Virus record (IMG/VR): IMGVR_UViG_3300029131_000181
DNA length: 64,000 bases
Direction: 5' to 3' (one strand)
Source: a virus
The translations under genes and the position numbers were made by a program. The notes under the pieces are model-generated. The model had not been told where the DNA came from, made no database searches, and saw only the letters and a list, made by a program, of their open reading frames with translations. Every line of letters starts with the position of its first letter. The stretch's first letter is position 1. Below are positions 6,474 through 38,358 of this stretch, one piece after another.

Positions 6474-6511
6474 CAAAAAGGGCGGGCTCCCTAAAAACAG
6501 GAAGTCCGCCC
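6474..6511 (-). terminator. leader intrinsic terminator between promoter P2 and the 5708..6448 gene
   Basis: GGGCGGACTTCC...AGGGAGCCCGCCC hairpin followed by a U-run in minus orientation. It ends 10 nt before the RBS. Confidence 0.5.
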
Positions 6512-6585
6512 TTTAAGCGAAATTGTGAATGTACGAAAGGCATAAAACCCTTTCGATATAGAATGTTATCTATCGTACAATTTTT

Positions 6586-6613
6586 ATTGTAGTCGGTTCG
6601 CACAGCTTGTCGA
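6586..6613 (-). promoter_or_regulatory. promoter P2 with conserved spacer element
   Basis: Minus strand reads TCGACA-agctgtgcgaaccgac-TACAAT. Confidence 0.45.
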
Positions 6614-6631
6614 GTAAATCAGGTGCAATTT

Positions 6632-7792
6632 TTATGGTTTGCAAATCCCACACGCCGAATACCCTTCCTGGATGAGCTCATCGCGGGGCCCCATATAGTC
6701 GATTCGATTCTTTTGACTCATCGATTCGACTGCAGAGCAATCGGGTTTGTGAAACTTCATAGTGCTCGTGTTCAGAACGTATGTCTCGTCTATGACAAGT
6801 GAAGCTTTGTCCTGTTCATCCTTGGAATCTGCAGCACTACCGGCTTCAATCCGATTTTCATCATGATATTCACCGGAAGTGAAACTTACCTCTTTGCCAT
6901 CCGAGGTGCAGTAAATATCACCCAGCAGGTCTGTGCGATAAACCTCGACACCTTTGTTTTGCAACTTGTCGAGTGTTTCCTGATGTGGATGACCGTAACT
7001 GTTCCCTGTGCCACAAGAAATCACAGCATATGTTGGATTTACCGCATCCAGAAAAGCCTCTGAGGTAGATGTACTTGAGCCATGATGCCCTACTTTCAGA
7101 ACTGTTGACTGAATGTCTTGTCCCGATGCAAGTATCACGTTTTCCGCTTCCTGTTCCGCATCTCCGGTAAAGAGGAACGAGGTGTCTCCATAGACAATAC
7201 GCAAAACAATCGAAGTATTGTTCGTGTCATCGGGAACAGAATTAACACCAACTATCGTGAATTCTGCTTTCCCTAGAGTATAAGTGTCTCCCACATCCGG
7301 TATCGTGATGCCTCCGCCTTTCTGTTCCGCGTGGCTTGCAAAGTCCCGAAATGCTTTGCTGTCGTATTCTGTCACAGGGCATAGAGTCATGTCCGCAGTG
7401 ACGGCCTCAAAGGCACCGGACAAGCCGCCGATGTGGTCTTCGTGCGCGTGAGTCCCAACGACATAATCCAGGTGCCCATCGGTTTCACGCTGCATAACAG
7501 AATATAAGAGGTTAGAATCATCGACATTACCGCCATCAATAAGCATTGAGTGGCCGTCGCAGGTGATAAGGGCGGAATCCGCCTGCCCTACGTCTATAAA
7601 GTGAATGGTAAAGCTGCCGTCCACCGAACCGCCAGCCGTCTGTTCACTGCTTGCAGTGCTTTCTGAGACGACCCCGGTGCTGGATGGACTTTCCGATATT
7701 ATCGGATTCTGACCGCAGCCGGTGAAGCTGAGTGCAAGGAGCGTAGCGATGATTGCCGCCGTGCTCCGGAATAGATTGTTTTTGAGTTTCAT
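6632..7792 (-). CDS. lipoprotein with metallo-beta-lactamase fold and C-terminal Ada-like zinc-binding domain (ComEC-C-terminal-like)
   Basis: Signal peptide plus lipobox (LSFTGC). MBL motif HAHEDHIGG. C-terminal FHKPDCSAV...GYSACGICKP resembles Ada-type Zn-binding domains. Confidence 0.75.
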   Translation of the reverse strand: MKLKNNLFRSTAAIIATLLALSFTGCGQNPIISESPSSTGVVSESTASSEQTAGGSVDGSFTIHFIDVGQADSALITCDGHSMLIDGGNVDDSNLLYSVMQRETDGHLDYVVGTHAHEDHIGGLSGAFEAVTADMTLCPVTEYDSKAFRDFASHAEQKGGGITIPDVGDTYTLGKAEFTIVGVNSVPDDTNNTSIVLRIVYGDTSFLFTGDAEQEAENVILASGQDIQSTVLKVGHHGSSTSTSEAFLDAVNPTYAVISCGTGNSYGHPHQETLDKLQNKGVEVYRTDLLGDIYCTSDGKEVSFTSGEYHDENRIEAGSAADSKDEQDKASLVIDETYVLNTSTMKFHKPDCSAVESMSQKNRIDYMGPRDELIQEGYSACGICKP

Positions 7793-7810
7793 ACTTTTTC
7801 TCCTTTCAAC

Positions 7811-7849
7811 AAAAAAAGCGGACCTACCCCGCTATGGGATAAGTCCGCT
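7811..7849 (-). terminator. leader intrinsic terminator between promoter P3 and the MBL-lipoprotein gene
   Basis: AGCGGAC-(19 nt)-GTCCGCT hairpin plus a 7-U run, immediately before the GGAGAAA RBS. Confidence 0.5.
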
Positions 7850-7902
7850 TAAAATACAGATTGTGAATCCTACTGATTTTTAGTATCTGTTCACATTTTA
7901 TA

Positions 7903-7929
7903 TTGTACGGCGTTCGTATATTTTGGCAA
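7903..7929 (-). promoter_or_regulatory. promoter P3 (divergent variant of the conserved motif)
   Basis: Minus strand reads TTGCCA-aaatatacgaacgccg-TACAAT. Confidence 0.4.
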
Positions 7930-7932
7930 GCG

Positions 7933-8145
7933 CTATTTTTCCCCAAACTTGATGTCGATATATACAATCTCAAAGCACAGTGCAGCGCTCAAGGCAAATC
8001 CGAGAACGATATACGACGGGTGAGTTAAGGACCAGCCAGGATTCGCTAGATACCCATGCCAATATCTAATGTTAAGTACAAAAATAAACACCGGCAGAAT
8101 TAGATACCAGATGCTTTCCAGCACAATTTTGATGTCTTTTCGCAT
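7933..8145 (-). CDS. small membrane protein (2 TM helices)
   Basis: 70 aa with two hydrophobic helices. Confidence 0.45.
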   Translation of the reverse strand: MRKDIKIVLESIWYLILPVFIFVLNIRYWHGYLANPGWSLTHPSYIVLGFALSAALCFEIVYIDIKFGEK

Positions 8146-14574: not shown

Positions 14575-14735
14575 ATTCGGACTTCCAACTTTTCACGGGT
14601 TGCCCCGTTACTCAGTATGGATTTCTGCTTCATAGAGCGAGCTTACCGCAAGCCGCAGCTCTTGATAGAGGCTCGCTCTCCACAGACTTTAAGATTCGGT
14701 CGTCCTGACCGTACTGTTCGCCTGTGGTTATGAGG
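14575..14735 (-). ncRNA. candidate TnpB ωRNA / right-end element
   Basis: The region overlapping the tnpB 3' end contains GCTGGC-gta-GCCAGC and GAGCGAGC...GCTCGCTC hairpins. The position matches where TnpB ωRNAs are encoded. Confidence 0.3.
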
Positions 14736-15837
14736 CGGCTGGCGTAGCCAGCATGTCCATTCCTTTCTTTAGAATGTTTTCTGCTGCATTTTTATCCCTA
14801 TCGTGTGATGTGTTACATTTCGGACAGACCCAATGCCGAACATTGAGGTTTTTTACCTCTTTGTTTTGGTAGCCGCAGCAAGAGCAGGTCTGGCTGCTTG
14901 GATAGAAGGTTGGTATTTTTACAACTACTCTTCCTGCCCAACTGGATTTATAATCAAGTTGTCGGAAGAACTCTCCCCAAGAAACATCGGAAATACTTTT
15001 AGCAAGGTTATGATTGCGAACCATACCATTTACATTGAGGTCTTCTACACAGATGATTTGGTTTTCTTTCACCAGTGTAGATGACAACTTGTGTAGGGCA
15101 TCTTTTCGCTTATTGGTCACTTTTTCGTGGCAGCAAGCCACCTTGATACGTTGCTTCTCCCAGTTGGCAGAACCTTTCTTTTTGCGTGACAGCTTTTTCT
15201 GCTCACGCTTTAGTTTAGCTTCCGCTTTCTGAAGATATTTATTGTTTGGATATTCTTTTCCATTGCTGTCAACAGCAAAAGATTTGATGCCAACATCTAA
15301 ACCGATGACGGTATCTTTAACCGGAAGCGGCATTACTTCTACTTTGCAAAGAATACTTACATAGTATTTGCCGCTTGCTGAGCGACGGATTGTTGCCTTA
15401 CAGATGCGTCCCTCAATGTTGCGACTCTTACGATAACGCATCTTCCCAAGTGTCGGAAGCTGAATGTACTTATCGTCAACTTTAATGCTTTTTGCTTTTG
15501 TAGTTGTATAGCTTTCTTCTCCCCGTTTTCGTTTGAATTGGGGGAACCCTTTACCGTCTTCGAAAAAGCCTTTATAGGCATTATTTAACTGACGACAGCT
15601 ATATTTGAGTGCTTGACTATCTACTTCAGCAAGCCAAGGAAGATAAGTTTTCATCTGAGGAAGCAGATTTTGTGTATCAATATAGCTCATACTTTCACCG
15701 CGCCGTTGATAAGCTTTTATACGCCTATCTAGCATAGAGTTATATACAAAACGGCAGCAGCCGAGCGTTTTATTGATTTTGACTTTCTGTTCTTCTGTTG
15801 GCTCTAGCCGAAATTTATAGCCTTTATGTACTTTCAA
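14728..15837 (-). CDS. tnpB: TnpB (OMEGA RNA-guided endonuclease, IS605 OrfB)
   Basis: Ruv[11 protein letters not shown], Ruv[10 protein letters not shown], zinc finger CSCCGYQN...[18 protein letters not shown] (RuvC-III). TTG start with AAAGGAGG RBS. Confidence 0.9.
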
Positions 15838-15921
15838 AGTGGCTCACCTCCTTTATGGACTTTTGTGCTCATGAGTTATTCAGACCCCCCGGAAAAAGTT
15901 GAATAGCCCCAAATTCTCCTT

Positions 15922-16981: not shown

Positions 16982-17012
16982 ATTGTACGCAGTTCGCACA
17001 AAAGAAAAAGCT
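16982..17012 (-). promoter_or_regulatory. promoter P4 with conserved spacer element
   Basis: Minus strand reads ...ttttgtgcgaactgcg-TACAAT. The -35 is weak. Confidence 0.4.
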
Positions 17013-17283
17013 ACCCAACAGCCATAAGGCCACTGAGCAGCTTAGTGTGAATTCTATTGTGTGCATAGTATCTTTCGTACAAATTCGATGGTATGAGATT
17101 CGCACGCCGGGTCAAGACACATCGGCAGCTACGCATCCTGGCACCTACGGTTCCAACGGCAAAAAGCGCAGCTACGCAACAAATAAGCAAAAAGAAAAAG
17201 CCGCCCACCCGGTCAGGGGTGAACGGCAGGAAACGCTATCTATGTAAAAAAACGACTGAGTTCGTCAGAGGTCTTGTAATCTA

Positions 17284-18807
17284 TCAGGCAGCCATCTTCG
17301 CTGCGGTTTTGCCCTTCGGACCCTTCTTCCGTGCATTGGCTTCAAGCTCCTTCTTGTTGGTATCATACCAAACCTCGAACTCCTTGAAGTTGTTCAACGC
17401 CCAAATCTCAGGAGAAGCCTTGCGACCGTAAGTTTCTTCCAACAGGTGGATAACTTTGCGGCCAACTTCTTCCATGATTTCGGCATCGTATTTGCCGCCA
17501 CCGCAGTAAAACCCTTCAGGCATAATAATGTCGTATTTAGGGTCAAGAACTTCAAGCCCCGGCTCCAAAACGCGAATGCCTTTGTAGCCAGCTTTGCGTA
17601 CAGCTTCAAATTTGAAGCGGTCCTTTTCGGCAGCATCTGCGTGCGGATATTTTCCATTATACTCATAAATGAGTCTCTGGATATGGTCCACGAAGTCTAA
17701 TCCCAAAAGACTATTTTCGCCCAAGATGTTTCGAACATCAAAGAAGGGGTTGGCAATTCCGTTTTCACCGGCAAATGCCAACATGGGACGTGTGTAAAAC
17801 CACTCCGGCTTGGAAATGGCATTGATTCTTCGCATTTTGCAGTCGTAGCATCCAGTAAGACCGTTGTTCACAGAACGAACAATATTGTTAATTGCAGCTT
17901 CGAATTCTTGCCCGCAATCACGGCATTTGAAGAAGGCTTTTTTGTTGCTTTGAACAGTTACTTCTGAAGCAGAAAGCTTGTTTTTACTACTCCACATGGA
18001 GGCTGCTTTCGGACATTGCGACGCAAGGTCATTGATGCCGGGAACAACCCTCCGACCTACGCAAACTAGGCATCCAGTGTTGCCGTTTTTTACAGCACAA
18101 ACAACATCTCCAATTATGGCTTTGAACTCTTGCCCACAATCCGGGCACACAAAGAAAGCTTTTTTCCCGCTTTTAGCTGTGACTTCTGAAGCGGAAAGCT
18201 TATTTTTATTACTCCACATAGCGGCTGCTTCTGGGCACTGTGACGCAAGGTCATTGATGCCAGGGGCAACTCTTAGTCCTCTGCAAACAGGGCAACCTGT
18301 GTTTCCGTTACTTACAGAATAGACAACGTGTTCGATTTTGGCTTCAAATTCTTCCCCGCAGTCCGGGCATACGAATATCGCCTTTTTGTTGCATTTGACA
18401 GCAATTTCCGAGGCAGACTTTTTGTTTTTGTTACTCCACATAGCTGCAATTTCCGGGTATTTCGACGCAAGGTCGTTGATGCCGGGGATAATCTTTCTTC
18501 CTGCGCAAACAGAGCAACCCGTGAATCCCTTGTCTACAGAACGAACAACATTAAAGATTCTGCTTTCAAATTCCTGCCCGCAATCAGGACACACAAAAGT
18601 GAGTTTTTTATTGCTTCCAGTAGTAACTTCAAAGGCAAGTTTCTTATCTTTTTCGCTCAGCATTGCAGCTACTTTTGGGCAAGCAACAGCAAGGCAATTT
18701 TTCTTAACCACTTCATACGGCATCTCAATGCCAAGAGCCGGAATAGGAGCGCAAGAAGCGCAGTTGCAAGAGTTAGCGTGCATCATAATTTTCATGTTAG
18801 TATTCAT
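17284..18807 (-). CDS. zinc-ribbon repeat protein (4x treble-clef DUF4379-like repeats) with C-terminal Vsr/DUF559-like endonuclease domain
   Basis: Four tandem ~75 aa repeats, each FVCPDCGQEF...GNTGC.VC.G...PGINDLAS...AAMWS.KNK. C-terminal IYEYNGKYPHADAAEKDRFKFEAVRKAGYKGIRV matches the Vsr/DUF559 E-x-DG...H...D..R...L...G..V.R pattern. Start refined to MNTNMK with AAAGGAG RBS. Confidence 0.7.
   Translation of the reverse strand: MNTNMKIMMHANSCNCASCAPIPALGIEMPYEVVKKNCLAVACPKVAAMLSEKDKKLAFEVTTGSNKKLTFVCPDCGQEFESRIFNVVRSVDKGFTGCSVCAGRKIIPGINDLASKYPEIAAMWSNKNKKSASEIAVKCNKKAIFVCPDCGEEFEAKIEHVVYSVSNGNTGCPVCRGLRVAPGINDLASQCPEAAAMWSNKNKLSASEVTAKSGKKAFFVCPDCGQEFKAIIGDVVCAVKNGNTGCLVCVGRRVVPGINDLASQCPKAASMWSSKNKLSASEVTVQSNKKAFFKCRDCGQEFEAAINNIVRSVNNGLTGCYDCKMRRINAISKPEWFYTRPMLAFAGENGIANPFFDVRNILGENSLLGLDFVDHIQRLIYEYNGKYPHADAAEKDRFKFEAVRKAGYKGIRVLEPGLEVLDPKYDIIMPEGFYCGGGKYDAEIMEEVGRKVIHLLEETYGRKASPEIWALNNFKEFEVWYDTNKKELEANARKKGPKGKTAAKMAA
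17930..18640. repeat. intragenic tandem nucleotide repeats (~225 bp units, about 85% identical)
   Basis: For example, 17950-18090 versus 18175-18310 align base for base with few substitutions. They encode the zinc-ribbon repeat units. Confidence 0.6.
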
Positions 18808-18837
18808 GATAGATTTCTCCTTTGTTATCAATAAAAA

Positions 18838-18888
18838 TAAAAAAGCAGCCACCCTTCCCTCTTTTGAGGGCAAAAGCGACTGCTTTAC
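18838..18888 (-). terminator. intrinsic terminator
   Basis: Long imperfect hairpin AAGCAGCC...GGCTGCTT with U-runs in minus orientation. Confidence 0.4.
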
Positions 18889-18927: not shown

Positions 18928-19113
18928 TCACTCGTCCAGCATAACCTGCAAACGGGCGTTGAATTCCTTCATGTCGGCGCTTTCCTCGGCTGCAGCAAGG
19001 ACACGCGGATAAATTTCCGGATTCATGCTCTTCAGCATGTTCAGAGTAGAAAGAAGCAGAGGGTTGGTGATAGTCATAGTAAGCATCTCCTTGTTATTCA
19101 TAGTAATGTTCAA
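18928..19113 (-). CDS. small hypothetical protein (61 aa)
   Basis: ATGA overlap with the upstream gene. Confidence 0.35.
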   Translation of the reverse strand: MNITMNNKEMLTMTITNPLLLSTLNMLKSMNPEIYPRVLAAAEESADMKEFNARLQVMLDE

Positions 19114-19949
19114 ACGTTGGTATTCGTGCGATGGCCTTTCAGCGTGCCCTTGTTGAACTGTGTCAAACGGGCGTGCTTCAGAACAAATCCGTCTTCGAAT
19201 TGAACGTCAACGGCGTTTGTGCTGATGATGCGAATGATGGTTGCTTTCGAGCCATCATTCATGGTCTTGGTCATAGGTCCGCTATACTCGACCTTAAAAT
19301 CGAAAGGAAGCGGCTTATGCTTGGTGCAGCAGGGACAAGAAGAACTGCCGTTATTGATGCAGTGGACAAGAGAATTCACGTGAGTGACGTATTCTTCTCC
19401 GCAATCCGGGCATACAATGACGACCTTCTTGCAGCTATTGGCACTTACTTCACGCGGGGAGAAAGCGTTTTTGCTGCTCCACATTTTTGCCACGGCAGGA
19501 GATGTGGTTGCCAAGTCATTGGTTCCGGGAACGACTTTCATGCCACGGCATACGGGGCAAGTGAAGGTTCCATTCTCGATGTCTTTGACCAAAGAGATGA
19601 TTTTTGTTGTGTACTCTGCATGACAATCAGGGCATACAACAATCACCTTTTCGGGACTGTCACAGCGAACTTCGTCGGGATGAATCGTGTTTTTAGGACT
19701 CCACATAGCTGCAATTTTGGGATACTTGGTAGCCAAATCATTGACTCCGGGAACAAGCTTTTCGCTATGGGTTTCTTCGGCTTTGAATGCCGTAGTTACC
19801 TTACGGTTTTTGACCGTTTTGAATCGGCAGACAGGGCAGGCAGTTACGCCACGCTGCTTAGCTCTAACAAGGTTTGCCTCGTAGGTTGTGTATTTGCAAC
19901 CGCAATCGGGGCAGATGGTGATGACTTTTTCGTTCATGTTAATGTTATT
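19110..19949 (-). CDS. zinc-ribbon repeat protein (paralogue of 17284..18807), no recognisable nuclease domain
   Basis: Repeats ITICPDCGCKY...ACPVCRF, VVCPDCHAEY...CPVCRGMKVVPGTNDLAT, VIVCPDCGEEY...SSCPCC. Start refined to MNNINMNEK. The 5' extension overlaps a terminator and a promoter. Confidence 0.6.
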   Translation of the reverse strand, partial: NNINMNEKVITICPDCGCKYTTYEANLVRAKQRGVTACPVCRFKTVKNRKVTTAFKAEETHSEKLVPGVNDLATKYPKIAAMWSPKNTIHPDEVRCDSPEKVIVVCPDCHAEYTTKIISLVKDIENGTFTCPVCRGMKVVPGTNDLATTSPAVAKMWSSKNAFSPREVSANSCKKVVIVCPDCGEEYVTHVNSLVHCINNGSSSCPCCTKHKPLPFDFKVEYSGPMTKTMNDGSKATIIRIISTNAVDVQFEDGFVLKHARLTQFNKGTLKGHRTNTNV

Positions 19950-20009
19950 CATGATAGTTCCGGGTGCTGCTCTTGATGCAATCTCCACAGCGGGTCGGTC
20001 GCTTCTGCA

Positions 20010-20045
20010 AAACAAAAAGGACAACCTCAAAATGAGGCTGTCCTT
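20010..20045 (-). terminator. leader terminator between promoter (20101..20128) and the zinc-ribbon gene
   Basis: AAGGACAACCTC-aaaat-GAGGCTGTCCTT perfect 12 bp stem plus U-run. About 55 nt upstream of the start codon. Confidence 0.5.
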
Positions 20046-20100
20046 GCAAAAGCGGAATGTTAAAAATAAATTGGTAAGTGGTATCTTTGATACAACATCT

Positions 20101-20128
20101 ATCATAGCCATCTCGCACACATTGTCAA
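20101..20128 (-). promoter_or_regulatory. strong sigma-70-like promoter
   Basis: Minus strand reads TTGACA-atgtgtgcgagatggc-TATGAT (16 nt spacer). The spacer resembles the conserved element. Confidence 0.55.
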
Positions 20129-20130
20129 AC

Positions 20131-20168
20131 AAAAAAAGACCCTGCCCGCATTTTGCTGCGAGCAGGGT
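20131..20168 (-). terminator. intrinsic terminator after the acidic-protein gene
   Basis: ACCCTGCCCGC...GCGAGCAGGGT hairpin flanked by A- and T-runs. Possibly bidirectional. Confidence 0.5.
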
Positions 20169-23265: not shown

Positions 23266-23290
23266 ACAGAATCCTCCTTAAAATAAACAG

Positions 23291-23368
23291 CCTCCCACCG
23301 CAGTCAGCATACTACTGATTACGATGGGAGGCTCAAAACCTTTTGTGATGGTTCTATTATATCACGCC
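23291..23368 (-). promoter_or_regulatory. repeated promoter/5'-leader element copy B (extended -10 TGATATAAT)
   Basis: Homologous to 21913..21986. Confidence 0.45.
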
Positions 23369-23399
23369 TTGCGAAAAACTCAAGGCAAATTTCAATAAC

Positions 23400-24844: not shown

Positions 24845-25981
24845 TTACATATCCGACTTCGCCGCATTACACTTCTTGCACAGCATCTGCAGATTGTCAT
24901 CAGTGGTATGTCCGCCCTTGCTCCAAGGAATGATGTGGTCGCCTTCCATATCCTCAAAGGCGTACTCGGTGTTGATGCCATTTGCAACGCACAAGGGGCA
25001 CTTGTGACCCTGCCGCTCATAGGCGCGGAGTTTCTGCGACTCAGTAAATGCACGAAGGGACAGATGCTTTTCGTCGCGCCAAGTGCGGTCAGAGAGGATG
25101 AACGGGACAATGCCTGCCTTCTTGGTCACGTCATCATCCAGCACGAGTTTCTTGATATCAGCGTCCAGAGCGTTGCTATTATACTGCTTTGCATGGTACT
25201 TGTTGTAGAGTAGTCCCCATGCCTGTGTATCCGTAATTCCCTTCCGCTTGGTCGGGAACAACATTTTAGCCCAGTTGATTACAGACTGGAAGTAAAGCCA
25301 GAGGTCATTGGCGTCCTCGTCATGCTGGTGAATCGCCATGTACATCTGCCCGGATTCCAGACCATCACGGTCAGCAATCCACGCCAGTGCCTTTTCCAGC
25401 AACTCCTGCCGAATCGGGTTACCTTTCAGGTATCCGTCAGCCATCTTCGCAGCAACACAGTTGCGTTTCGAGAAGTAGTTCTTGGCATCGGCCAGCCACG
25501 GTCCTGTATAAGTAGCGTTCAGCAGCTCCTGCGGAGTCAACACCTCACCGGCGATGTTGATGCGCTTGAACCATTCCAGTTTCTCGGCTTCGGAGCCTTC
25601 ACAGATATTCACGGTCAACTCGTAGTCCAGAATTTTCTGTTTTTCCTCATCTGTCAAGTTCTGGAAGAACTTGTCGTTGCCGTTGATTTTGACGGGGAAA
25701 TCCTTGTTGACATACTGTGCAATGGAAATTGTCCGCTGTTGTCCATCGAGAACCTCGTAGGTATCTGGACCGGTCTTGGACCAGTACATGAGGTTCAACG
25801 GGAATCCGTTCATTACCGAATCAATGACGGCTGCACGCTGTTTATCGGAGAAGCAAAAATTTCTTTGGTAGCTTGGCCTAATCGTGAGGCGATTGTTGTA
25901 CCCATATACGCCACTGTCTCCGTCATCCGAATAGTTCTCTACAAGGTCGGATACCTTGATTTTGGTTTCTGTGATTTTCAT
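24845..25981 (-). CDS. DUF262 (ParB-like NTPase, GmrSD N-domain) + HNH endonuclease fusion
   Basis: DGQQR motif (EVLDGQQRTISI). C-terminal HNH: CPLCVANG...EGDHIIPWSKGGHTTDDNLQMLCKKCNAAKS. Confidence 0.8.
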   Translation of the reverse strand: MKITETKIKVSDLVENYSDDGDSGVYGYNNRLTIRPSYQRNFCFSDKQRAAVIDSVMNGFPLNLMYWSKTGPDTYEVLDGQQRTISIAQYVNKDFPVKINGNDKFFQNLTDEEKQKILDYELTVNICEGSEAEKLEWFKRINIAGEVLTPQELLNATYTGPWLADAKNYFSKRNCVAAKMADGYLKGNPIRQELLEKALAWIADRDGLESGQMYMAIHQHDEDANDLWLYFQSVINWAKMLFPTKRKGITDTQAWGLLYNKYHAKQYNSNALDADIKKLVLDDDVTKKAGIVPFILSDRTWRDEKHLSLRAFTESQKLRAYERQGHKCPLCVANGINTEYAFEDMEGDHIIPWSKGGHTTDDNLQMLCKKCNAAKSDM

Positions 25982-26862: not shown

Positions 26863-27955
26863 CGCCTTGCTTCCTCCTTTTTCTGATAAAAATTCTCTGA
26901 TAAACTGCAGAAAGCTGCACGCCATCAGGGCTTACCGAAAAGTCGCTCCTTCCTCTTTTAACAACTTTTGGTGACATCTTATCTCTTAATGCACCAGAGC
27001 CGGAGATTGTTACGCCATCCGCCTTGAAGAACTTAAAGCCAAGGCTTGTATAATCTTTATCGGCTCTGCAAGGCGTATCATCGAACATGGAACCACCAAC
27101 AATCTCAAACTGCTCCGGATTATACTTATCCAAAAAAGTGATAGGCACGCCCATAACGCCTTCATAGTCCACCGGAATATTCGCAACCCTATCCACATTG
27201 ATGGCCATGTAGTTATCATAGCGGGGGTAGCGCTCTTCCACGTCCGGCAGAGGGTTTCCGTCATCGTCATAGTACCGCTGCCAGAGAATCAGTTTCTCGT
27301 GGCGCTTCTGGATGTCGAGGTTAGTAAACCATCTTGTTAGACCGTTGATTTTCTTTGTTATTCCATTGGGGGTATCAAACTCGGATGGTGAGCTATAACC
27401 AATCCACACTTTGTTTTCTTTCAGAAGTGGAAAAAACTCTTTGTATGTAATGGCGTTCTTATTCCCGATAATCAGGAACTTTTTGCCGTGCTGCATCAGT
27501 GTGCCAACATACTCACGGAATAAGCTGAATGGCGGATTGGTCACCACGATATCACTTTCATCCAGCAAGTCAAGGCATTCCTTGCTCCGGAAATCGCCGT
27601 TGCCTTCCAGCAGGGTTTTTACACCGACTTCCACATCATTATCATCTCCGCCCTCGTACTCCATCTTGTAGGTTGGTTCGGTGTGGTCATAGTGCGTAGA
27701 AATCAGCTTCTTTAAGCCAAGTTCTGCAAAGTTCAGGTGAAAATACCGCCAGAAAGCGGACCATGTCGGGTCGTCACAGTTGCAGAATACAACCTTGCCT
27801 GCGAAATGCTTCTTGTAGTGCCGCAATTCCTCTGCGACATCCTCGATTCTGGTGTAGAACTCATCATTCTTCGCGTCCTTCGCCTTATGAAGGTTATCGT
27901 TCTTTGCCATGTCTATATCTCCCAATAAAAAATCCAGCACCGAATTACTCAGCAC
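26846..27955 (-). CDS. DNA methyltransferase (N6-adenine/N4-cytosine class, NPPF motif)
   Basis: DEFYTR ... FCNCDDP ... TNPPFS motifs. Confidence 0.8.
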   Translation of the reverse strand: MLSNSVLDFLLGDIDMAKNDNLHKAKDAKNDEFYTRIEDVAEELRHYKKHFAGKVVFCNCDDPTWSAFWRYFHLNFAELGLKKLISTHYDHTEPTYKMEYEGGDDNDVEVGVKTLLEGNGDFRSKECLDLLDESDIVVTNPPFSLFREYVGTLMQHGKKFLIIGNKNAITYKEFFPLLKENKVWIGYSSPSEFDTPNGITKKINGLTRWFTNLDIQKRHEKLILWQRYYDDDGNPLPDVEERYPRYDNYMAINVDRVANIPVDYEGVMGVPITFLDKYNPEQFEIVGGSMFDDTPCRADKDYTSLGFKFFKADGVTISGSGALRDKMSPKVVKRGRSDFSVSPDGVQLSAVYQRIFIRKRRKQGDEGTK

Positions 27956-29813
27956 TGGATGTATTTTCCGTATTACAATGACCGCATGATGTTTTCTTGT
28001 TTTCTACAAGACTTTGGGTTATCGCAAAGCATTCGTTTCCGCAATCACATTGACATTTCCATCGAGCATGACCGTTTTGGCTTCCTGCTCTCTCAATGAC
28101 CTTTAGCTTACCAAAGTGCATATTAGCTAAATCGTAAGTTCTTCCTTTTTTGACGAACTTATCGCGTGATGGATTTGCTTTCAAAAAGGCATCTGCTTCC
28201 TCTTCTGTCATGCTTTCGTATTCATTGGCAAATAACCAATGATATCCTCCGGCAACTGTACGTAGCTTGTTGCAGCAGTTCAAGATAGGCGAACCGCCGC
28301 TAATCCCGTATTTAAGAGAAGCCTCTTTTGCTGTAGAAAATCTCTCTTTTGTTTCAACGCAAATCACACTCTTGAAGTGTTTTTGTTTATAGCATTCAGG
28401 GCAGTTATGCCCGTATACTCTATCGGCTATTATCATCTTGTAGGAATGACCGTTTTTGCATTTCCACCAGCATTTTTCTGCAGACCCGGATGAGAAATAT
28501 TCGGGCTTCAAATTCTTGTTTTTTTCGTAATCCCATTCAGCAACAATTTCAGGATGTTCTGTAGCAAGGTTGTTCTTTTCGTTCCGTCTTCTTTTGCCTG
28601 TTGTACAAACAGGACATGTTGCGTTTTCTTTTGCTCTGCCATTGATGGGTGCTTCCCATTTATGCCCGCACTTAGAGCAAATCCAATGAACCATTTCTGA
28701 GCTAGATGATGACACCATCATCGGGTCAATGCCTACATTCAGTTCGTAGTCCCATTCTTTCAGGAGTTCCGGATGCCGTCCGCCCATACTTCGTTCAGCT
28801 TTGTAATCTTTGTATTGACGATAGATGTCTTTTGAATCCTTTTGTGTATCAATGTTAGGTTCAGAAACGCCAAGCATCTCTAAGCATTGGCGAATTGCTG
28901 CGTCGAGCGTTGCGTGCCCTCTATTGTTTTCTCTGATGATATTCTCGCTATTACGAATTTCCTGAAGCCCATGCTCGCGAATACGAATTATCCGAATTCC
29001 ATTCTGCTTGCATTTTTCGGACTTTTCTTCGTCATTTTTCACTCTTTTCTCATCAGAATGGTATCGAACACCATCGTATTCTACTGCAGTGCGAATGGAG
29101 GGGATGTAAATGTCCAGCTCTTTTCCAATAACTTTCTTGTTTCCAATAACAGCCTCTGAAAAATACTTTTTTGCATAATACGCTACTGCTTGTTCTTGGA
29201 ACGAGGTCTGTCCTTTATCGATAGTGCTGCATATCGGGCAACTCTTGATACGCTGGATGTAATGATATACGCTTGCCTGCCATTCCGTGCCACAAGCAGA
29301 GCATTTCCACCATACAACAATATTGCTTCCTTGTGTCAGCATACTGACATCTACGTCCTTATTTTTTGCAAAGTCATAGTCTTGCATAGCTTCTGCATTA
29401 TCTACAAGCATTTTCGAAGCTTCGGTAATGTGTTTGCAACAACCGCAAGACTTCACTTTTCCCCGCAGCAAAGAAGAGCGATAAGCAACAAATTCTTTTC
29501 CGCAGCTACACATACAGTTATAACGAATGTTTCTATGCCCCGTGCTTCCAATCGCATCTTCTGCCAAAGAAATAACTTTGATACCGTTGTGTTCTTCGCC
29601 AACCAAATCCTGGTATGTACGTTTACGGTCTTTACCTCGGCAGTCTTTACACTTTAACCCTTTCAAGAGCGCGTCGATACCAATTATCATTGTGTTTCCG
29701 CAGCAGTTACATTTCACCAAATAGGTATCTGCTTTTGAATTAGAGCCGGGGATAGTTTCGAAAACTGTTAAATCTCCGTATGTTTTGCCTGTTCTATTTA
29801 TTTTCGCCGCCAT
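27945..29813 (-). CDS. zinc-ribbon repeat protein with internal Vsr/DUF559-like nuclease motif (paralogue of 17284..18807)
   Basis: Multiple C-x2-C...C-x2-C ribbons (KCNCCGN...CKDCRG; WKCSACGTEW...CPICS; CWWKCKNGH...CPECY). AVEYDGVRYHSDEKRVKNDEEKSEKCKQNGIRIIRIRE matches the Vsr/DUF559 pattern. Stop overlaps the MTase start. Confidence 0.65.
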   Translation of the reverse strand: MAAKINRTGKTYGDLTVFETIPGSNSKADTYLVKCNCCGNTMIIGIDALLKGLKCKDCRGKDRKRTYQDLVGEEHNGIKVISLAEDAIGSTGHRNIRYNCMCSCGKEFVAYRSSLLRGKVKSCGCCKHITEASKMLVDNAEAMQDYDFAKNKDVDVSMLTQGSNIVVWWKCSACGTEWQASVYHYIQRIKSCPICSTIDKGQTSFQEQAVAYYAKKYFSEAVIGNKKVIGKELDIYIPSIRTAVEYDGVRYHSDEKRVKNDEEKSEKCKQNGIRIIRIREHGLQEIRNSENIIRENNRGHATLDAAIRQCLEMLGVSEPNIDTQKDSKDIYRQYKDYKAERSMGGRHPELLKEWDYELNVGIDPMMVSSSSSEMVHWICSKCGHKWEAPINGRAKENATCPVCTTGKRRRNEKNNLATEHPEIVAEWDYEKNKNLKPEYFSSGSAEKCWWKCKNGHSYKMIIADRVYGHNCPECYKQKHFKSVICVETKERFSTAKEASLKYGISGGSPILNCCNKLRTVAGGYHWLFANEYESMTEEEADAFLKANPSRDKFVKKGRTYDLANMHFGKLKVIERAGSQNGHARWKCQCDCGNECFAITQSLVENKKTSCGHCNTENTSSAE

Positions 29814-30245: not shown

Positions 30246-30279
30246 CAAAAAGAAGCCGCAGAAACCTATCCTCTGCGGC
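30246..30279 (-). terminator. intrinsic terminator about 20-50 nt downstream of promoter P6
   Basis: GCCGCAGA-aacctatcct-CTGCGGC hairpin plus U-run. Confidence 0.5.
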
Positions 30280-30303
30280 TACACTTATTTATCTTATATT
30301 TCC

Positions 30304-30330
30304 TATCATATCCAATTCGCACGGATGCAC
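30304..30330 (-). promoter_or_regulatory. promoter P6 with conserved spacer element
   Basis: Minus strand reads TTGTGC-atccgtgcgaattgga-TATGAT. Upstream (30328-30368) are four GGCAAAA repeats with about 11 bp phasing. Confidence 0.5.
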
Positions 30331-30488
30331 AAGGCAAAATTGTGGCAAAACCGTAGCAAAACAGTGGCAAAGACAAGGTACATGGGACTTGTTCCGTTGC
30401 TGAACAGGAAATGCCAAAAAACAACTGCTTTGCTCAAATATGTCATCTCGTGTATTTTCTTGTCATTTATTGTAAATTCGCGCTTGCT

Positions 30489-32042: not shown

Positions 32043-32462
32043 ATGCAAATGTTCGTCAATAATAACCTGTCATATGGTAGAGGTTATGTTTACAATATTC
32101 AATATCATATTGTGTGGTGTACAAAGTACAGAAAACCAGTTTTGATAAACGAAACAGAACAATCGCTAAAAGAGTCTCTGCAGCAGACCGCCGAAACCAT
32201 AAAAATCAATATTGTAGAAATGGAATGCATGCCTGACCATATTCACCTGTTGGTGGAGTGTTCACCGCAGCATTTTATCCCGGATATGATAAAAGTGCTT
32301 AAAGGCAACAGTGCAAGAGCTATTTTTATCGCCAATCCGGACTTGAAGAAGCAACTTTGGGGCGGGCATCTTTGGAACCCAAGCTACTTTATTGCAACCG
32401 TCAGTGATAACACGCGCAAACAAGTACAAGAATACATTGCATCTCAAAAAATAAGAAACTGA
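32043..32462 (+). CDS. tnpA: IS200/IS605 Y1 HUH transposase TnpA
   Basis: HUH motif PDHIHLLV. Catalytic Tyr region NPSYFIATV. 139 aa. Confidence 0.85.
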   Translation: MQMFVNNNLSYGRGYVYNIQYHIVWCTKYRKPVLINETEQSLKESLQQTAETIKINIVEMECMPDHIHLLVECSPQHFIPDMIKVLKGNSARAIFIANPDLKKQLWGGHLWNPSYFIATVSDNTRKQVQEYIASQKIRN

Positions 32463-32480
32463 TGAAAGGGGGGCTTCGCA

Positions 32481-33812
32481 GTGAAAATCACTTCCAGCTA
32501 TGCTGTGGAAATCAAAAAGCAGAAAATGTTCGACAATACTATAAAGATTTATCGCGAAGCCGTTTCTTTCTTGATTGGTTGTTTTAACAAAGAATGGGAT
32601 TCTATTCAAAAAGTAGAGGGTGCCAAATCTCGAAAGAGTTTTGCCGAGAAGTTAATTCATACTACAAAATACAGCACTGCTAAATATGATTTCGATGCCA
32701 AGTTTTATAAGTTCCCTAGTTACCTGCGCAGAGCGGCTATTCAAGCAGCACTCGGCTCTGTAAGCAGCTACTACAGTAGCCATAAGAACTGGGAAGCAAA
32801 CGGCAAGGTTGACAGGGAGCCAAAACTTCAATGCGATAGATTTTGCTTCCCGGCTTTTTATAAGACCGTTATGTATGAGGAAAGCAACAAACCAAACCAG
32901 TGCTATCTGAAGCTGTATAAAAACAATGACTGGGTTTGGGTTCCTATCGCAATGCGTGCCACCGATGTCAAATACATCACGAAATACTGGTCACATTGCG
33001 AAAAGAGTGCTCCTGCACTCGAAAAGAAGTACGGGAAGTATTTCCTACGCTTTGCCTTCGAGGAAGAGGTAAAACTCTCCGAAACTGAAATTCAAGACAG
33101 GCGTATCTGCGCTGTAGACCTTGGTCTCAATACTGACGCCGTGTGCAGCATCATGACTGCCGATGGAACTGTCCTTGCAAGAAAATTTATCAATTTTGCA
33201 AGTGAAAAAGACCATCTGTATCATGTGCTCAACCGTATTAAGCGTAAGCAAAGAGAACATGGACCTAAGAGTGCTGCTGCTATGTGGCGTTACGCCAAAG
33301 CCTTGAATAACGATATAGCGAAAAAGGTTGCTGCTGCGATTACTGAATTTGCTGTGCTTTATTCTGTAGATGTGATTGTTTTTGAACATTTGTCATTTAC
33401 AGGCAAAAAGCACGGTGGCAGTAAGGCACAGAAGCTGTCGATGTGGAAGCGTAATTCCATACAGGATTATGTGGAACACAAGGCGCACCGCTGCGGTATC
33501 CGGATTTCGCGTATCTGTGCTTGGGGGACAAGCAAACTCGCCTTTGATGGCAGTGGTGCTCTCAAGCGTGATGAAACCAATCGTGCCCTTGCAACGTTTG
33601 CAAGCGGCAAACAATACAACTGCGACCTAAGTGCGAGCTACAATATTGGCGCTCGCTACTTTGTCAGAGAGTTGCTAAAACCCTTGCCAGCGATGGTAAG
33701 GTCTCAGCTTTCGGCTAATGTTCCGGATGTTGAGCGTAGAATCCAAGTTACACTTGCCACGCTTAAAGTTCTGTATCCTGAGCTTAAAAAACTCAGTACA
33801 CAGGCAGCGTAA
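32481..33812 (+). CDS. tnpB: TnpB (OMEGA RNA-guided endonuclease)
   Basis: RuvC-I CAVDLGLNTDAV, RuvC-II VIVFEHLSF, RuvC-III NCDLSASYNIGARY, CxxC-type Zn region. Confidence 0.85.
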   Translation: MKITSSYAVEIKKQKMFDNTIKIYREAVSFLIGCFNKEWDSIQKVEGAKSRKSFAEKLIHTTKYSTAKYDFDAKFYKFPSYLRRAAIQAALGSVSSYYSSHKNWEANGKVDREPKLQCDRFCFPAFYKTVMYEESNKPNQCYLKLYKNNDWVWVPIAMRATDVKYITKYWSHCEKSAPALEKKYGKYFLRFAFEEEVKLSETEIQDRRICAVDLGLNTDAVCSIMTADGTVLARKFINFASEKDHLYHVLNRIKRKQREHGPKSAAAMWRYAKALNNDIAKKVAAAITEFAVLYSVDVIVFEHLSFTGKKHGGSKAQKLSMWKRNSIQDYVEHKAHRCGIRISRICAWGTSKLAFDGSGALKRDETNRALATFASGKQYNCDLSASYNIGARYFVRELLKPLPAMVRSQLSANVPDVERRIQVTLATLKVLYPELKKLSTQAA

Positions 33813-35850: not shown

Positions 35851-35854
35851 CTTG

Positions 35855-38050
35855 TTACCTCCTGGTTCTTGCCGCCTTCTGTTGTTCGACCCACGCTTCG
35901 GCTTCCTCTACTGTGGCATACACTGCCGTCTCACCGCGCCGGGCAATCTGCTTTCGGGCATTCTGAGCTGCCTGCTCACTCTTGTAAGTTTCATAGCCAA
36001 TGTAGGACCCATCCCATCGGGCAAGGCAGCAATAATATTCGTGGCTCTTAGCGGGAGCTGTCGGGACAAAGGGAGGAGGTACTGCGGGTGTTGCCTGAGT
36101 CGGCTGTGCGGCAGGAATCGGTGTTCCAGTCTTTCTGGCAATTAGATTCTGCTTTTCTGCCATCCAGGCATCAGCTTCCTTCGTATAATAGAAGTACTTT
36201 GCTTCGCAAGTATTGAACAGTGAATAATACAGATTCAACATTTCTTTTTCACTGTTGCAGACCTTCTTGCGAGCCAAATTGTAGCTTGCATCGTAGTAGC
36301 AGCAGATGAAAGCATCCCCACGCGGTGCTTTCTTCGTCTCGTCTTCCTTGTAGTCTGGATACAGCTTGGCGAGGTCTTCTGCCGTATTCTTTTCCGGGTC
36401 CAGCGTGGATGCGTCGAACCCATTCGGAAGTTTCCAGTCATGAGAACTGATGATGTCCAAAAAGCTGCTTGCATAGCGCAATGTCCAGCGCCCAACATGG
36501 ACGAACCCAAAACTTTCAAGACACCGAATCTGTTTCGGGGTAGCCATTCCGCTGGCTCTGCGAGCAATGAGTCGTTTGAGAATTGCAGCGGCAAGGCCCT
36601 GAGATTTGATGGCATCCCCTTTTACGCCGTAGCACGAAATACTATCGATGATGTCATCGGAAGGCTCCTGCCTCTCACTCTCAAACATCGGCTGATAATC
36701 GTTGAGTTCCGGCGCTTCGATGCTGAAAATGTACTGCAGCGGGTCAACCAATCCTCTCGGCTTTTGACGCTGTGCCTTGAGCTTGCGCTGAATCGTATCC
36801 TGCTTTTCGAGTTCACACAGTGCTTTCCGCTTTTCCTCGTCCAGCTCAGTCTGTGCTTCCTCGATTGCCTCAATCAGCCCCAATTCAGGACTCCCGAAAT
36901 TCTCCTGGCTATTCGAACCGGTGAGTGCCGCATCCGCCAGCATATCGGTGGTCTTTTGTGCCACTTCTTGGTCTTCACAGAAAATATCAGCAGGATGGCA
37001 AAGACTATGTTTCTTTGTCAGCCACAGGAAATCCAGCACGAGAAGATTCTTTTTCCCTTCACACAGACGTGTTCCGCGTCCCACAATCTGCGCATACAGG
37101 CTGCGGCTCCTGGTAGGACGCAGGCAAATGATGCAGTCAACGGTCGGGCAATCCCAGCCTTCCGTCAGAAGCATCGCGTTCGTGAGCGCCTTGTACTCGC
37201 CGTTGTCGAATCCTTTCAGAACGTCCTCGCGGTCCGCAGACGCGCCATTGACTTCTGCAGTCTTGAAGTTCCGCTTATTGAGGATATTGCACAGTCTTTT
37301 GCTGATTCGTACCAGAGGCGTAAAGATAACGGTCTTTCGGTTCTGGCATTCTCGTACAATGGCATCCGCAATCGTGTCCAGATACAGGTCAAGAACATTG
37401 CCGAGGTCCTGAGCACTGAAATCACCGGCGTTGATATGGACTTTGCTGATATCCACCTTGACAGGAATCGTCTTCGTGTTGATTTTGCAGAGATAACCTT
37501 CCCGAATTGCATCCGGAAGCTTATATTCAAATGCAAGACTATCAAAGATATCAGATAGGGATTTCATGTCGCTTCGGTCGGGTGTTGCGGTCACGCCCAA
37601 CACTTTGGCATCGATGAAATGCTCGAGAATTCCCTTGTAAGTTTTGGTTGCCGTGTGATGCGCTTCATCAATGATGATAGTCCCGAAATAATCACGCGGA
37701 TACTTCATTAACCGATTCTGCTTAGAGAGAGTCTGTACACTGGCAACCACGACCATCTTATCGGAATCGAGCGCCGAGCTTTGTGCTTTCTCTAACGCGG
37801 TCTCTAGCCCCGTCACCATCTTGAGCTTGTCGCTTGCCTGCTGTAAAAGCTCTTCCCGGTGCGCAAGAATCAAAACGTGTTCGCCCTTTGCCACCTGGTC
37901 GTTCACGATGCTTGCAAACACAATAGTTTTGCCGGTTCCGGTCGGCATCACAACCAGCGTTTTCTTATTCCCGGCATCCCACTCCCTGTGAATCGCTGCA
38001 GCAGCTTCCTGTTGGTAGGGCCGGGAGTCAATCTTCTTTGTCATTGTCAT
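35855..38050 (-). CDS. SF2 DEAD/DEAH-box (ResIII-like) helicase
   Basis: Walker A PTGTGKT, DEAH box IIDEAHH, motif VI QIVGRGTR. 731 aa with a Pro/Ala-rich C-terminal extension. Confidence 0.8.
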   Translation of the reverse strand: MTMTKKIDSRPYQQEAAAAIHREWDAGNKKTLVVMPTGTGKTIVFASIVNDQVAKGEHVLILAHREELLQQASDKLKMVTGLETALEKAQSSALDSDKMVVVASVQTLSKQNRLMKYPRDYFGTIIIDEAHHTATKTYKGILEHFIDAKVLGVTATPDRSDMKSLSDIFDSLAFEYKLPDAIREGYLCKINTKTIPVKVDISKVHINAGDFSAQDLGNVLDLYLDTIADAIVRECQNRKTVIFTPLVRISKRLCNILNKRNFKTAEVNGASADREDVLKGFDNGEYKALTNAMLLTEGWDCPTVDCIICLRPTRSRSLYAQIVGRGTRLCEGKKNLLVLDFLWLTKKHSLCHPADIFCEDQEVAQKTTDMLADAALTGSNSQENFGSPELGLIEAIEEAQTELDEEKRKALCELEKQDTIQRKLKAQRQKPRGLVDPLQYIFSIEAPELNDYQPMFESERQEPSDDIIDSISCYGVKGDAIKSQGLAAAILKRLIARRASGMATPKQIRCLESFGFVHVGRWTLRYASSFLDIISSHDWKLPNGFDASTLDPEKNTAEDLAKLYPDYKEDETKKAPRGDAFICCYYDASYNLARKKVCNSEKEMLNLYYSLFNTCEAKYFYYTKEADAWMAEKQNLIARKTGTPIPAAQPTQATPAVPPPFVPTAPAKSHEYYCCLARWDGSYIGYETYKSEQAAQNARKQIARRGETAVYATVEEAEAWVEQQKAARTRR

Positions 38051-38060
38051 ATTTCACCTA

Positions 38061-38092
38061 AAAAAACAAGCAGGCCCGAAATGAGCCTGCCT
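38061..38092 (-). terminator. intrinsic terminator abutting the helicase RBS
   Basis: GCAGGC-ccgaaatga-GCCTGC hairpin plus a 7-U run, immediately upstream of the AGGTGAA RBS. Confidence 0.45.
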
Positions 38093-38106
38093 TACATTTT
38101 CCCAAT

Positions 38107-38307
38107 TTAGTTCATTGCCCGCTGCATCACAAATATGATGCCGGTTGCCAAAACCATAACGCCAATGTCTCTGACAACGGTTCCGACCCGTTTATCATTG
38201 GTAATGTCCTGATTCCATTCAAATCCCCAACCAATCATAGCGACACCAACCACAATCAAAATAACACCAACAATCGTTAAGCTCTCTTCTGATAAACCGT
38301 ACATCAT
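38107..38307 (-). CDS. small membrane protein (66 aa, 2 TM)
   Basis: MMYGLSEESLTIVGVILIVVGVAMIGWGF... GGAAAGG RBS. The longer listed ORF overlaps promoter P7. Confidence 0.45.
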   Translation of the reverse strand: MMYGLSEESLTIVGVILIVVGVAMIGWGFEWNQDITNDKRVGTVVRDIGVMVLATGIIFVMQRAMN

Positions 38308-38321
38308 GCATTTCCTTTCCG

Positions 38322-38358
38322 CAAACAAAAAGCCCCGCACAAGCAATTCATGCGGGGC
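38322..38358 (-). terminator. leader terminator between promoter P7 and the small membrane protein gene
   Basis: GCCCCGCA-caagcaattca-TGCGGGGC perfect 8 bp stem plus U-run, about 15 nt before the RBS. Confidence 0.55.

Follow-up and report, generated by a model that had tools for sequence, protein, structure and literature searches.

Terminators close to promoters have been described in several regulatory systems. In the protein-dependent attenuators (BglG/SacY-LicT ribonucleic antiterminator (RAT), HutP, PyrR and ANTAR targets) and in transcriptional riboswitches, a promoter-proximal structured RNA precedes an intrinsic terminator, the 5' arm of which has an alternative upstream partner; this alternative helix is too weak to prevail unaided, so that termination is the default. 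At PR'-tR'/Q of phage lambda, a constitutive-looking promoter with a conserved element between -35 and -10 is followed by a strong terminator that has to be overcome, and the default product is a short terminated RNA (6S RNA or StxS), which in the case of StxS acts as a small RNA (PMC7547250). Premature termination within a 5' untranslated region (5'UTR), of unknown function, was detected by ONT-cappable-seq in the giant Pseudomonas phages 201phi2-1, phiKZ and PAK_P3 (PMC11512511). The PeSL cassettes of T4-type phages are repeated composites of a sigma70-like promoter, a stem-loop and a Shine-Dalgarno (SD) sequence in variable regions, in the order stem-loop/terminator, promoter, SD (PMC4122927). 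In the Gram-positive mobile element pLS20, one 456-nt leader (the zipper attenuator, ConAn) gates a 32-kb operon, and flanking complementary segments extend its long central stem into an antiterminator (PMC13401043). Here we analyzed a 64,000-nt stretch of viral DNA, IMG/VR record IMGVR_UViG_3300029131_000181 (hereafter the window), in which promoters are repeatedly followed by a leader, a terminator hairpin and a ribosome-binding site (RBS). We propose, with moderate confidence, that these cassettes are default-off leader attenuators that head most transcription units of a large phage and would require an antitermination mechanism that is probably local and based on the leader RNA.

The leaders share with the attenuators and riboswitches both the layout and the weak alternative partner of the terminator arm; with lambda, the order of promoter and strong terminator, a conserved spacer element and, as predicted default product, a short RNA; with the giant Pseudomonas phages, which are likewise jumbo phages, a stop right after transcription start and upstream of genes; with PeSL cassettes, the repeated composite build and the swapping of copies (here between contigs L008 and L107); and with pLS20, a leader terminator opposed by an alternative antiterminator fold. 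They also differ from each of them. In contrast to the attenuators and riboswitches, the phage has dozens of copies before unrelated genes, none with a sequence or Rfam match to a known leader; its putative antiterminator is a local 5-bp hairpin outside the 5' domain, and no cognate RNA-binding family was found in the window. The defined ligand or binding protein and coherent gene set that characterize such systems were not found either, the downstream genes being diverse. Lambda has one unit before one long late operon and a Q-specific promoter element, whereas the phage has dozens of insulated units, an element that is not specific to units with a terminator, leaders with covarying RNA structure, and no Q-family gene found in the window. 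The giant Pseudomonas phages have a handful of unrelated sites, found experimentally and served by the phages' own RNA polymerases; here, from sequence only, we describe a conserved multicopy family with sigmaA-type promoters and a predicted antiterminator pairing. Identity with PeSL was ruled out because the terminator lies between promoter and SD. A zipper attenuator was also ruled out, since the transcript is predicted to start at the first leader stem (P1), which leaves no upstream segment, and the antiterminator is a local hairpin of its own, with a loop of 4-11 nt; the leader is also only ~100 nt long, and the cassette is repeated before most genes. In the literature we found no description of a sequence-conserved multicopy phage leader with antiterminator pairing, and searches on the leader motifs returned chance matches only.

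Promoter-terminator-RBS units in the window

Almost all genes of the window lie on the minus strand, and ~17 intergenic promoters of one design were recognized, each of them on the coding strand. At least 10 of ~18 window promoters are followed, 20-130 nt downstream, by a strong GC hairpin with a T-run (ΔG -13 to -31 kcal/mol). Read along the RNA, a unit runs from the promoter through leader, GC-rich hairpin and T-run to the RBS and start codon, and in most units the T-run stops a few bases short of the RBS. Five further terminators adjoin an RBS without a promoter of their own (4.2, 18.8, 27.9, 29.8 and 38.1 kb). The sequence-only reading that preceded this analysis had listed seven hairpins, five of them behind promoters (sites 1 to 5 below). 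All seven hairpin/T-run sites are present at their listed coordinates, on the minus (coding) strand, with RNAfold ΔG values of -15 to -29 kcal/mol, and the two described as adjoining an RBS without a promoter (4224-4191 and 38092-38060) do so. The list was real but undercounted, as units are also found at 1.5, 17.0, 23.3, 30.3 and 48.2 kb and terminator-RBS pairs at 18.8, 27.9 and 29.8 kb. Its statement on spacing, 0-15 nt between the end of the T-run and the RBS, is correct for sites 1, 2 and 5 and at 4.2 and 38.1 kb; at site 3 the RBS is intact, but a TnpB element splits it from the ATG, and at site 4 no RBS after the T-run is convincing. A strict terminator scan of the window placed 17 of 18 hairpins of at least 10 bp on the coding strand; it was used instead of a permissive scan (42 minus versus 45 plus hits), which was too noisy for statistics. 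The units and their parts are as follows.

6613-6586, minus strand: site 1 promoter (TCGACA, spacer with TGTGCGAA, N5, TACAAT), which fits the consensus of 150 units
6531-6578, minus strand: site 1 leader 5' domain from the predicted +1, with P1 GUACG/CGUAC enclosing the hairpins CGAUA..UAUCG and GAAAGG..CCUUUC (nhmmer E=2e-20)
6522-6530, minus strand: site 1 single-stranded linker AUUCACAAU, nearly invariant in the leader alignment
6505-6521, minus strand: site 1 antiterminator-like helix, predicted between UUCGC (6521-6517) and GCGGA (6509-6505), the base of the terminator 5' arm
6514-6475, minus strand: site 1 leader terminator, hairpin plus UUUUU
6446-6463, minus strand: site 1 RBS AAGGAG and, for the gene at 5708-6448, the probable true start codon, ATG 6448
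7929-7902, minus strand: site 2 promoter, with the degenerate core TATACGAA
7811-7894, minus strand: site 2 leader, with a short-form 5' part, AUUCACAAU-CUGU linker (7868-7856) and terminator (7850-7811), followed by RBS/ATG 7805-7790 (nhmmer E=4e-7)
16019-15992 and 15970-15924, minus strand: site 3 promoter and leader terminator
20009-20168, minus strand: site 4, with gene-end terminator (20168-20131), promoter (20128-20101) and leader terminator (20045-20009)
38302-38468, minus strand: site 5, with gene-end terminator (38468-38431), promoter (38419-38392), leader terminator (38358-38323) and RBS/ATG of a small membrane protein
38048-38092, minus strand: intercistronic terminator (38092-38060) adjoining the RBS/ATG of a 731-aa helicase
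4171-4224, minus strand: intercistronic terminator (4224-4191) adjoining the RBS/ATG of a 477-aa gene
1479-1621, minus strand: 1.5-kb unit, with promoter (1621-1594), two leader hairpins, of which the second (1529-1502) has a U-rich tail, and RBS/ATG of a Mor/helix-turn-helix (HTH) regulator
16982-17115, minus strand: 17-kb unit, with promoter (17115-17088), a leader that starts GUACGAAAGAUAC...AUUCACAC and terminator (17043-17000)
18805-18886, minus strand: terminator adjoining the RBS of an HNH/homing-endonuclease gene, with equivalents at 27960-27908 and 29867-29811
23263-23383, minus strand: 23.3-kb unit, with a TTGAGT-N16-TGnTATAAT promoter, an 11-bp GC stem (23332-23290), the tail UGUUUAUUUU, AAGGAGG and ATG
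30246-30332, minus strand: 30.3-kb unit, with promoter (30332-30305) and leader terminator (30280-30246), then a decayed gene fragment
48147-48341, minus strand: 48-kb unit, with promoter (48341-48314), a ~130-nt leader, terminator (48210-48173) and a second promoter (48165-48147) directly after it

The genes behind these units are diverse and encode an MBL-fold protein, helicases, a lipoprotein and proteins of unknown function. At site 2, the leader is kept in a clade in which the downstream protein is only ~70% identical. The site 3 terminator sits immediately 5' of AAGGAG-N8-ATG in the relatives L098, L105 and L171, and the corresponding position in clade-B orthologues (the clade with a ~70% identical helicase) holds a hairpin of another sequence. 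At site 4, the next open reading frame (ORF; ATG 19952) is homing-endonuclease-like, with no convincing RBS after the T-run. The T-run of the 17-kb unit merges into a second promoter at 17000-16982. In relatives, the leader terminator of the 30.3-kb unit is a tandem pair with an RBS and a gene after it, and at site 5 the helicase gene lies behind two strong terminators in series (38358-38323, then 38092-38060).

A multicopy leader RNA family

Related viral contigs (IMG/VR, 20-389 kb) provided 269 distinct leader copies for analysis. In a pattern search, more than 116 leader stretches in viral contigs were counted among the matches listed, and a single 34-kb contig carried at least six copies. 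A promoter core was present in 260 of the 269 copies, a hairpin with T-run (the leader-terminator criterion, ΔG below -12 kcal/mol) in 266, and an RBS with start codon in 256. Such a hairpin occurs in 19% of random 166-nt windows of the same loci, and the leader layout is thus far beyond chance. Across 346 promoter contexts, the promoter-terminator-ORF order was found in 224. The RBS begins at a median of 17 nt past the T-run start, which leaves no space for a second promoter. The layout is deliberate and forms a conserved, genome-wide pattern.

Alignment of the copies revealed a common anatomy. The leader starts at the predicted +1 with the stem P1 (GUACG/CGUAC), which encloses one or two inner hairpins and is followed by the single-stranded stretch A(A)UUCACAAU; the 3' part consists of a pentamer U[UC][CU]G[CU], a 4-11-nt loop, a terminator 5' arm that starts G[CU][AG]GAC, a U-run and the RBS. 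P1 is closed in 69 of 77 minimum free energy (MFE) folds, with G.U-compatible variants present. The inner hairpin P2 retains its pairing across 46 distinct sequences that vary in both stem and loop, and every P2 adjoins P1. This covariation supports the 5' domain as a structured RNA, for which the folding z-score is only moderate (-1.6). RNAalifold on a MAFFT alignment recovered only the terminator, because the variable 5' interior was misaligned; P1, P2 and the pentamer were therefore tested per sequence. Sites 1 and 2 share the leader motifs with each other and with relatives that have an only ~70% identical flanking protein, and the primary sequence of the 5' domain, of AAUUCACAAU and of GCRGAC is kept across clades at this distance.

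Only sites 1 and 2 were assigned to the family by an nhmmer profile search of the window, with a marginal match limited to the 5' end in the 17-kb unit, and a single leader family for all sites was thereby ruled out. The promoter-terminator-RBS arrangement is instead a general design of this genome, realized with several leader types. No leader matched Rfam at the gathering threshold or at E<=1 over the whole window, where only HDV-F-prausnitzii and HEARO were found, both outside the leaders. Leader-peptide attenuation was rejected, as inspection revealed no SD with ATG inside the leaders. A lambda N/nut arrangement was also rejected: P1 and the terminator are the only constant hairpins, P2 exists in 46 versions, and the alignment holds no boxA/boxB-like pair. 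The HK022 put RNA comprises two stem-loops shortly past the promoter that act in cis on RNA polymerase with no protein needed; the 5' domain contains two hairpins within P1 and has no sequence similarity to put. In one leader variant (L138:3825-3919 and L199:1921-2014), the DNA just 5' of GTACGA (TTGTGAAT) is complementary to AATTCACAA after P1; this inverted repeat crosses the predicted start, so that either transcription starts further upstream or the repeat acts at the DNA level.

Alternative pairing of the terminator arm

In 154 of 161 leaders, the linker pentamer is a complement of the five bases that open the terminator 5' arm. At the covarying position the counts are 87 C-G, 44 U-A, 28 U.G and 2 C.A (Fisher p=6e-18), or 54, 33, 18 and 2 in the same order after collapsing to 102 5'-domain types (p=2e-12), statistics that are to be read with the common descent of the copies in mind. 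Tolerance of U.G together with avoidance of C.A indicates pairing at the RNA level. The mean duplex energy was -6.39 kcal/mol with a leader's own arm, -5.78 (standard deviation, sd, 0.09) with swapped arms and -3.59 with shuffled linkers; own-arm duplexes thus exceed swapped arms by ~6.8 sd. In this main family, which starts with GTACGA, the antiterminator and terminator pairings are predicted to be mutually exclusive. Forcing the antiterminator helix at site 1 costs ~13.5 kcal/mol (-28.2 versus -41.7 for the terminator fold), and on this account the helix would lose unaided. No antiterminator pairing was seen by inspection at site 5.

Terminator strength and insulation

The leader terminators are not intrinsically weak and are at least as strong as the gene-end ones (median ΔG -21.9 versus -18.7 kcal/mol). 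Their structure is conserved beyond their sequence: compensatory changes were found at 8 of 12 pairs of the main-family terminator, the site 5 terminator has changed from GCCCCGC/GCGGGGC to GUCCCGC/GCGGGAC in relatives, and close relatives (e.g. L008 versus L107) combine the same 5' domain with a wholly different hairpin sequence that retains the structure. With a GC-rich stem, a U-run, a position on the transcribed strand and conserved structure, the leader hairpins have the sequence hallmarks of intrinsic terminators, and termination at them is presumably efficient. A terminator is also found 5' of the promoter in 115 of 215 units (versus 19% of random windows), so that units are insulated individually in the order terminator, promoter, leader, terminator, gene.

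These results bear out the earlier claim that downstream genes depend on read-through, as most units lack space for another promoter past the terminator and the terminators are not weak. A read-through-dependent regulon is therefore likely on the layout of the units, and read-through would be regulated. The short leader RNA proposed as an alternative by the sequence-only reading would be the expected default product.

A shared promoter class

The consensus of 150 unique units comprises a T-rich upstream region, TTGCca with an invariant TTG, a 16-nt spacer and TAgAAT with invariant A-11 and T-7; GTACGA begins 7-8 nt past the -10. Within the spacer, TGCGA is invariant at -23 to -19. The main leader family has TACGAT or TATGAT, -10-like hexamers of the TAnnnT type, at about +2 to +7. 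The 23.3-kb promoter differs and belongs to the extended -10 type. To our knowledge, sigmaA promoters are not known for an invariant TGCGA in the spacer. The earlier suggestion that this promoter-embedded element marks a dedicated antitermination class has to be abandoned, because TGCGA is common to promoters with and without a leader terminator, the latter at 63476, 42769, 41558, 39143, 20576 and 17000. Promoters of the TGCGA type presumably fire. The window encodes two Mor-family/HTH activator paralogues (954-1483 and 42224-42667, both minus strand), the second behind a promoter without a leader terminator, and these activators are plausible candidate readers of TGCGA.

Proposed leader attenuation and competing explanations

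In the mechanism that we propose, each cassette would consist of a sigmaA-type promoter, a structured leader RNA, a terminator and an RBS. RNA polymerase would stop in the leader by default, releasing an RNA of ~55-130 nt and leaving the gene off, and expression would come about by read-through. In the main family, the pentamer UYYGC, located 4-11 nt 5' of the terminator, would pair with the first five arm bases GCRGA and thereby uncouple the hairpin from the U-run. Because this helix is ~13 kcal/mol weaker than the terminator, it presumably needs a trans-acting factor, which may recognize the 5' domain and the single-stranded AAUUCACAAU and hold the weak helix in place. The combination of a conserved 5' domain and linker sequence with a weak antiterminator is the pattern of a factor-dependent attenuator, and suggests that a trans-acting factor exists. 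A bolder form of this proposal is a genome-wide riboregulon, in which a ~100-nt cis-acting leader family with a new RNA fold and dozens of copies gates most genes through a shared switch flipped by one signal. We consider this form unlikely. Its signal may be an early protein of the phage, a factor of the host or a small molecule, and it would be the viral counterpart of T-box or nut logic, spread genome-wide.

Several observations weigh against leader attenuation. The putative antiterminator helix is just 5 bp long (about -6 kcal/mol, compared with the terminator's -20 to -25). Pentamer and arm are separated by no more than 4-11 nt and the copies are paralogues, so that shared descent inflates the covariation statistics, and the way in which copies were selected accounts in part for the invariant 5' GTACGAnAGATA. 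The switch is confined to the GTACGA family, and the leaders of sites 3, 4 and 5 and at 1.5, 23, 30 and 48 kb lack such a pairing. The functional diversity of the downstream genes makes a metabolite-sensing riboswitch unlikely. No candidate factor was found in the window, either: Q, N, NusG/LoaP, ANTAR or CAT-type genes were absent among the 60 window proteins searched against PHROGs and the 40 searched against Pfam, in a window that covers at most about half of the genome. Proteins of units without a leader terminator showed no Arg-rich or zinc-finger hallmarks.

Two other explanations accept the hairpins as terminators that act on the downstream genes. In the first, antitermination is processive and loaded at the promoter, with a phage protein that binds TGCGA, engages polymerase paused at TACGAT (about +2 to +7) and makes it resistant to the leader terminator and all downstream ones. 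The invariance of TGCGA in 150 unique promoters and the conserved TAnnnT-type hexamers in the initially transcribed sequence are in line with this, as are the genes that lie behind two strong terminators (site 5, before the helicase) and the intercistronic terminators that adjoin an RBS at 4.2, 18.8, 27.9 and 29.8 kb. However, TGCGA occurs equally in promoters without a leader terminator; the two Mor/HTH activators of the window are simpler candidate readers of it; resistant polymerase would render the gene-end terminators of dozens of insulated units per genome pointless; the covarying RNA structure and the pentamer:arm pairing are left unexplained; and no Q-like family was detected in the PHROGs (60) and Pfam (40) searches of window proteins. 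We therefore regard this explanation as possible but unlikely, and one processive system of the lambda PR'-tR'/Q type, as earlier suggested, is not upheld: local control fits better with units that are insulated and present in dozens per genome, and the GTACGA leaders would carry an RNA switch of their own. A second explanation, constitutive partial terminators that set or lower the output of strong promoters and insulate neighbours without a dedicated factor, would suit the compact intergenic architecture with coding-strand terminators everywhere. Under it, the weak antiterminator helix could merely tune the folding kinetics of the terminator, and other giant phages show premature 5'UTR termination with no known regulator (PMC11512511). 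We find it improbable, since the leader terminators match gene-end terminators in strength, very little expression would get past the consecutive strong terminators of site 5 and, in relatives, of the 30-kb unit, and the sequence conservation of the 5' domain, AAUUCACAAU and GCRGAC exceeds what a passive attenuator needs.

Two further explanations place the function of the leader elsewhere. The terminated RNAs could themselves be the product, a family of phage small RNAs that use the single-stranded AAUUCACAAU as seed for host or phage targets, as in StxS (PMC7547250). The leaders are built like small RNAs (a 5' stem domain and a terminator, with a conserved single-stranded stretch between them), the 17-kb and 48-kb units end at a second promoter that makes the downstream gene independent of the upstream unit, and 5'UTR-derived small RNAs of phage 201phi2-1 offer a further precedent. 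Yet the terminator is directly followed by a gene's RBS, with no other promoter, in 256 of 269 copies, which marks them primarily as leaders, and a search for an antisense or small-RNA partner of AAUUCACAAU was negative, as the complement of the motif AUUCACAAU is not enriched on the transcribed strand (27 versus 338 occurrences in 1.7 Mb of related sequence). Small RNAs would also be compatible with leader attenuation as a by-product, and so are not a true alternative; as the primary function we think them very unlikely. It is less probable still, to the point of being remote, that the hairpins are not terminators at all and act as stability or processing elements (5' stabilizers, RNase sites) or translation enhancers. 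In Firmicutes, 5' stem-loops at +1 protect mRNA from 5' exonuclease, and P1 begins at the predicted +1. A U-rich tract lies immediately 5' of the SD, and an HDV-like ribozyme occupies the equivalent leader position at 43663-43594. A stabilizing role is possible for the 5' domain but leaves the terminator unexplained: a T-run directly follows the GC-rich stem in 266 of 269 copies, the leader hairpins are indistinguishable from gene-end terminators, and their strong coding-strand bias is what terminators would show.

Genome context and mobile elements

A megablast of 30 kb of the window against 50,697 deposited phage records gave no match, and a transfer RNA scan of the window found none. The window helicase is ~50% identical to helicases of Faecalibacterium and Streptococcus phages, which is only a distant similarity. 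We regard the window as belonging to a jumbo phage of a gut Clostridia host, in keeping with its sigmaA-type promoters and its strong RBS of the AGGAGG type. In a scan of bacterial genomes for the leader, DYBQ01000001.1 (223,830 bp) stood out with at least nine exact leader copies on this 224-kb contig, which belongs together with DYBQ01000017.1 to a metagenome-assembled genome of a human-gut catalogue labelled 'Clostridiales bacterium'; DYBQ01000001.1 aside, the other matches came to about the number expected by chance (roughly 30 by our own estimate). This contig is probably the window phage, or a close relative of it, which binning assigned to a bacterium, and the phage genome is at least 140 kb and probably ~224 kb in size.

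Mobile elements tend to land within leader cassettes, and one element disrupts site 3:

14578-15908, minus strand: TnpB element (IS200/605-type, OrfB_IS605/Cas12f-like) of 1.33 kb with AATTTGG on both flanks

It splits the site 3 SD (15921-15916) from the ATG (14568) of a UvrD-like helicase and is missing from the relatives L098, L105 and L171. The apparent exceptions to the layout (sites 3, 4 and 30 kb) all adjoin mobile-element genes, with insertion demonstrated only at site 3. A plus-strand island at 30.0-33.8 kb contains an IS200/605-type TnpA (139 aa) and a TnpB-like protein (443 aa) at 32043-33812. HNH/homing-endonuclease-like genes are clustered on the minus strand (17284-18822, 19110-19952, 24845-25981 and 27945-29813), several with a terminator adjoining their own RBS, and the same cluster includes a decayed zinc-finger gene fragment at ~30244-30120 (minus strand). 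The distance from the 17-kb leader to the helicase is ~3.9 kb in the relative L082 and ~18.8 kb in the window, for which reason ~18-35 kb looks like an insertion-rich variable region. In the relatives L092 and L094, the site 5 promoter with its leader, and the first half of the gene for the small membrane protein, are replaced by unrelated sequence, which gives a recombination junction inside that gene.

Two further RNAs were detected outside the leader family. A full-length HDV-F-prausnitzii match (43594-43663, minus strand; 60.4 bits, gathering threshold 44) occupies an intergenic leader position; this HDV-like ribozyme ends ~10 nt before the RBS/ATG (43570) of the next gene, and a small hairpin follows the stop codon of a 564-aa gene. 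A HEARO (IscB omega-RNA) match (54561-54853, minus strand; 70.1 bits, E=4e-12) falls below its gathering threshold of 83 and lies directly 5' of a 465-aa HNH ORF (53107-54504, minus strand); the two are probably a phage-carried IscB/omega-RNA pair. The window also encodes a DUF3990 protein (2166-2672, minus strand; E=1e-51) with weak similarity to the ADP-ribosyltransferase domain of polyvalent proteins.

Implications

If leader attenuation is correct, the few known cis-regulators of phages would be joined by a new structured RNA family, and the leaders would provide orthogonal promoter-attenuator parts for Firmicutes. They would also leave a signature in virome transcriptomes, namely abundant 55-130-nt RNAs that end at leader T-runs, to be compared with read-through transcripts. 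Most genes of an abundant human-gut jumbo phage would then be off by default behind active promoters and freed by one mechanism acting on a shared leader RNA, which would give the phage programme a master switch that is compact and accessible to experiment.

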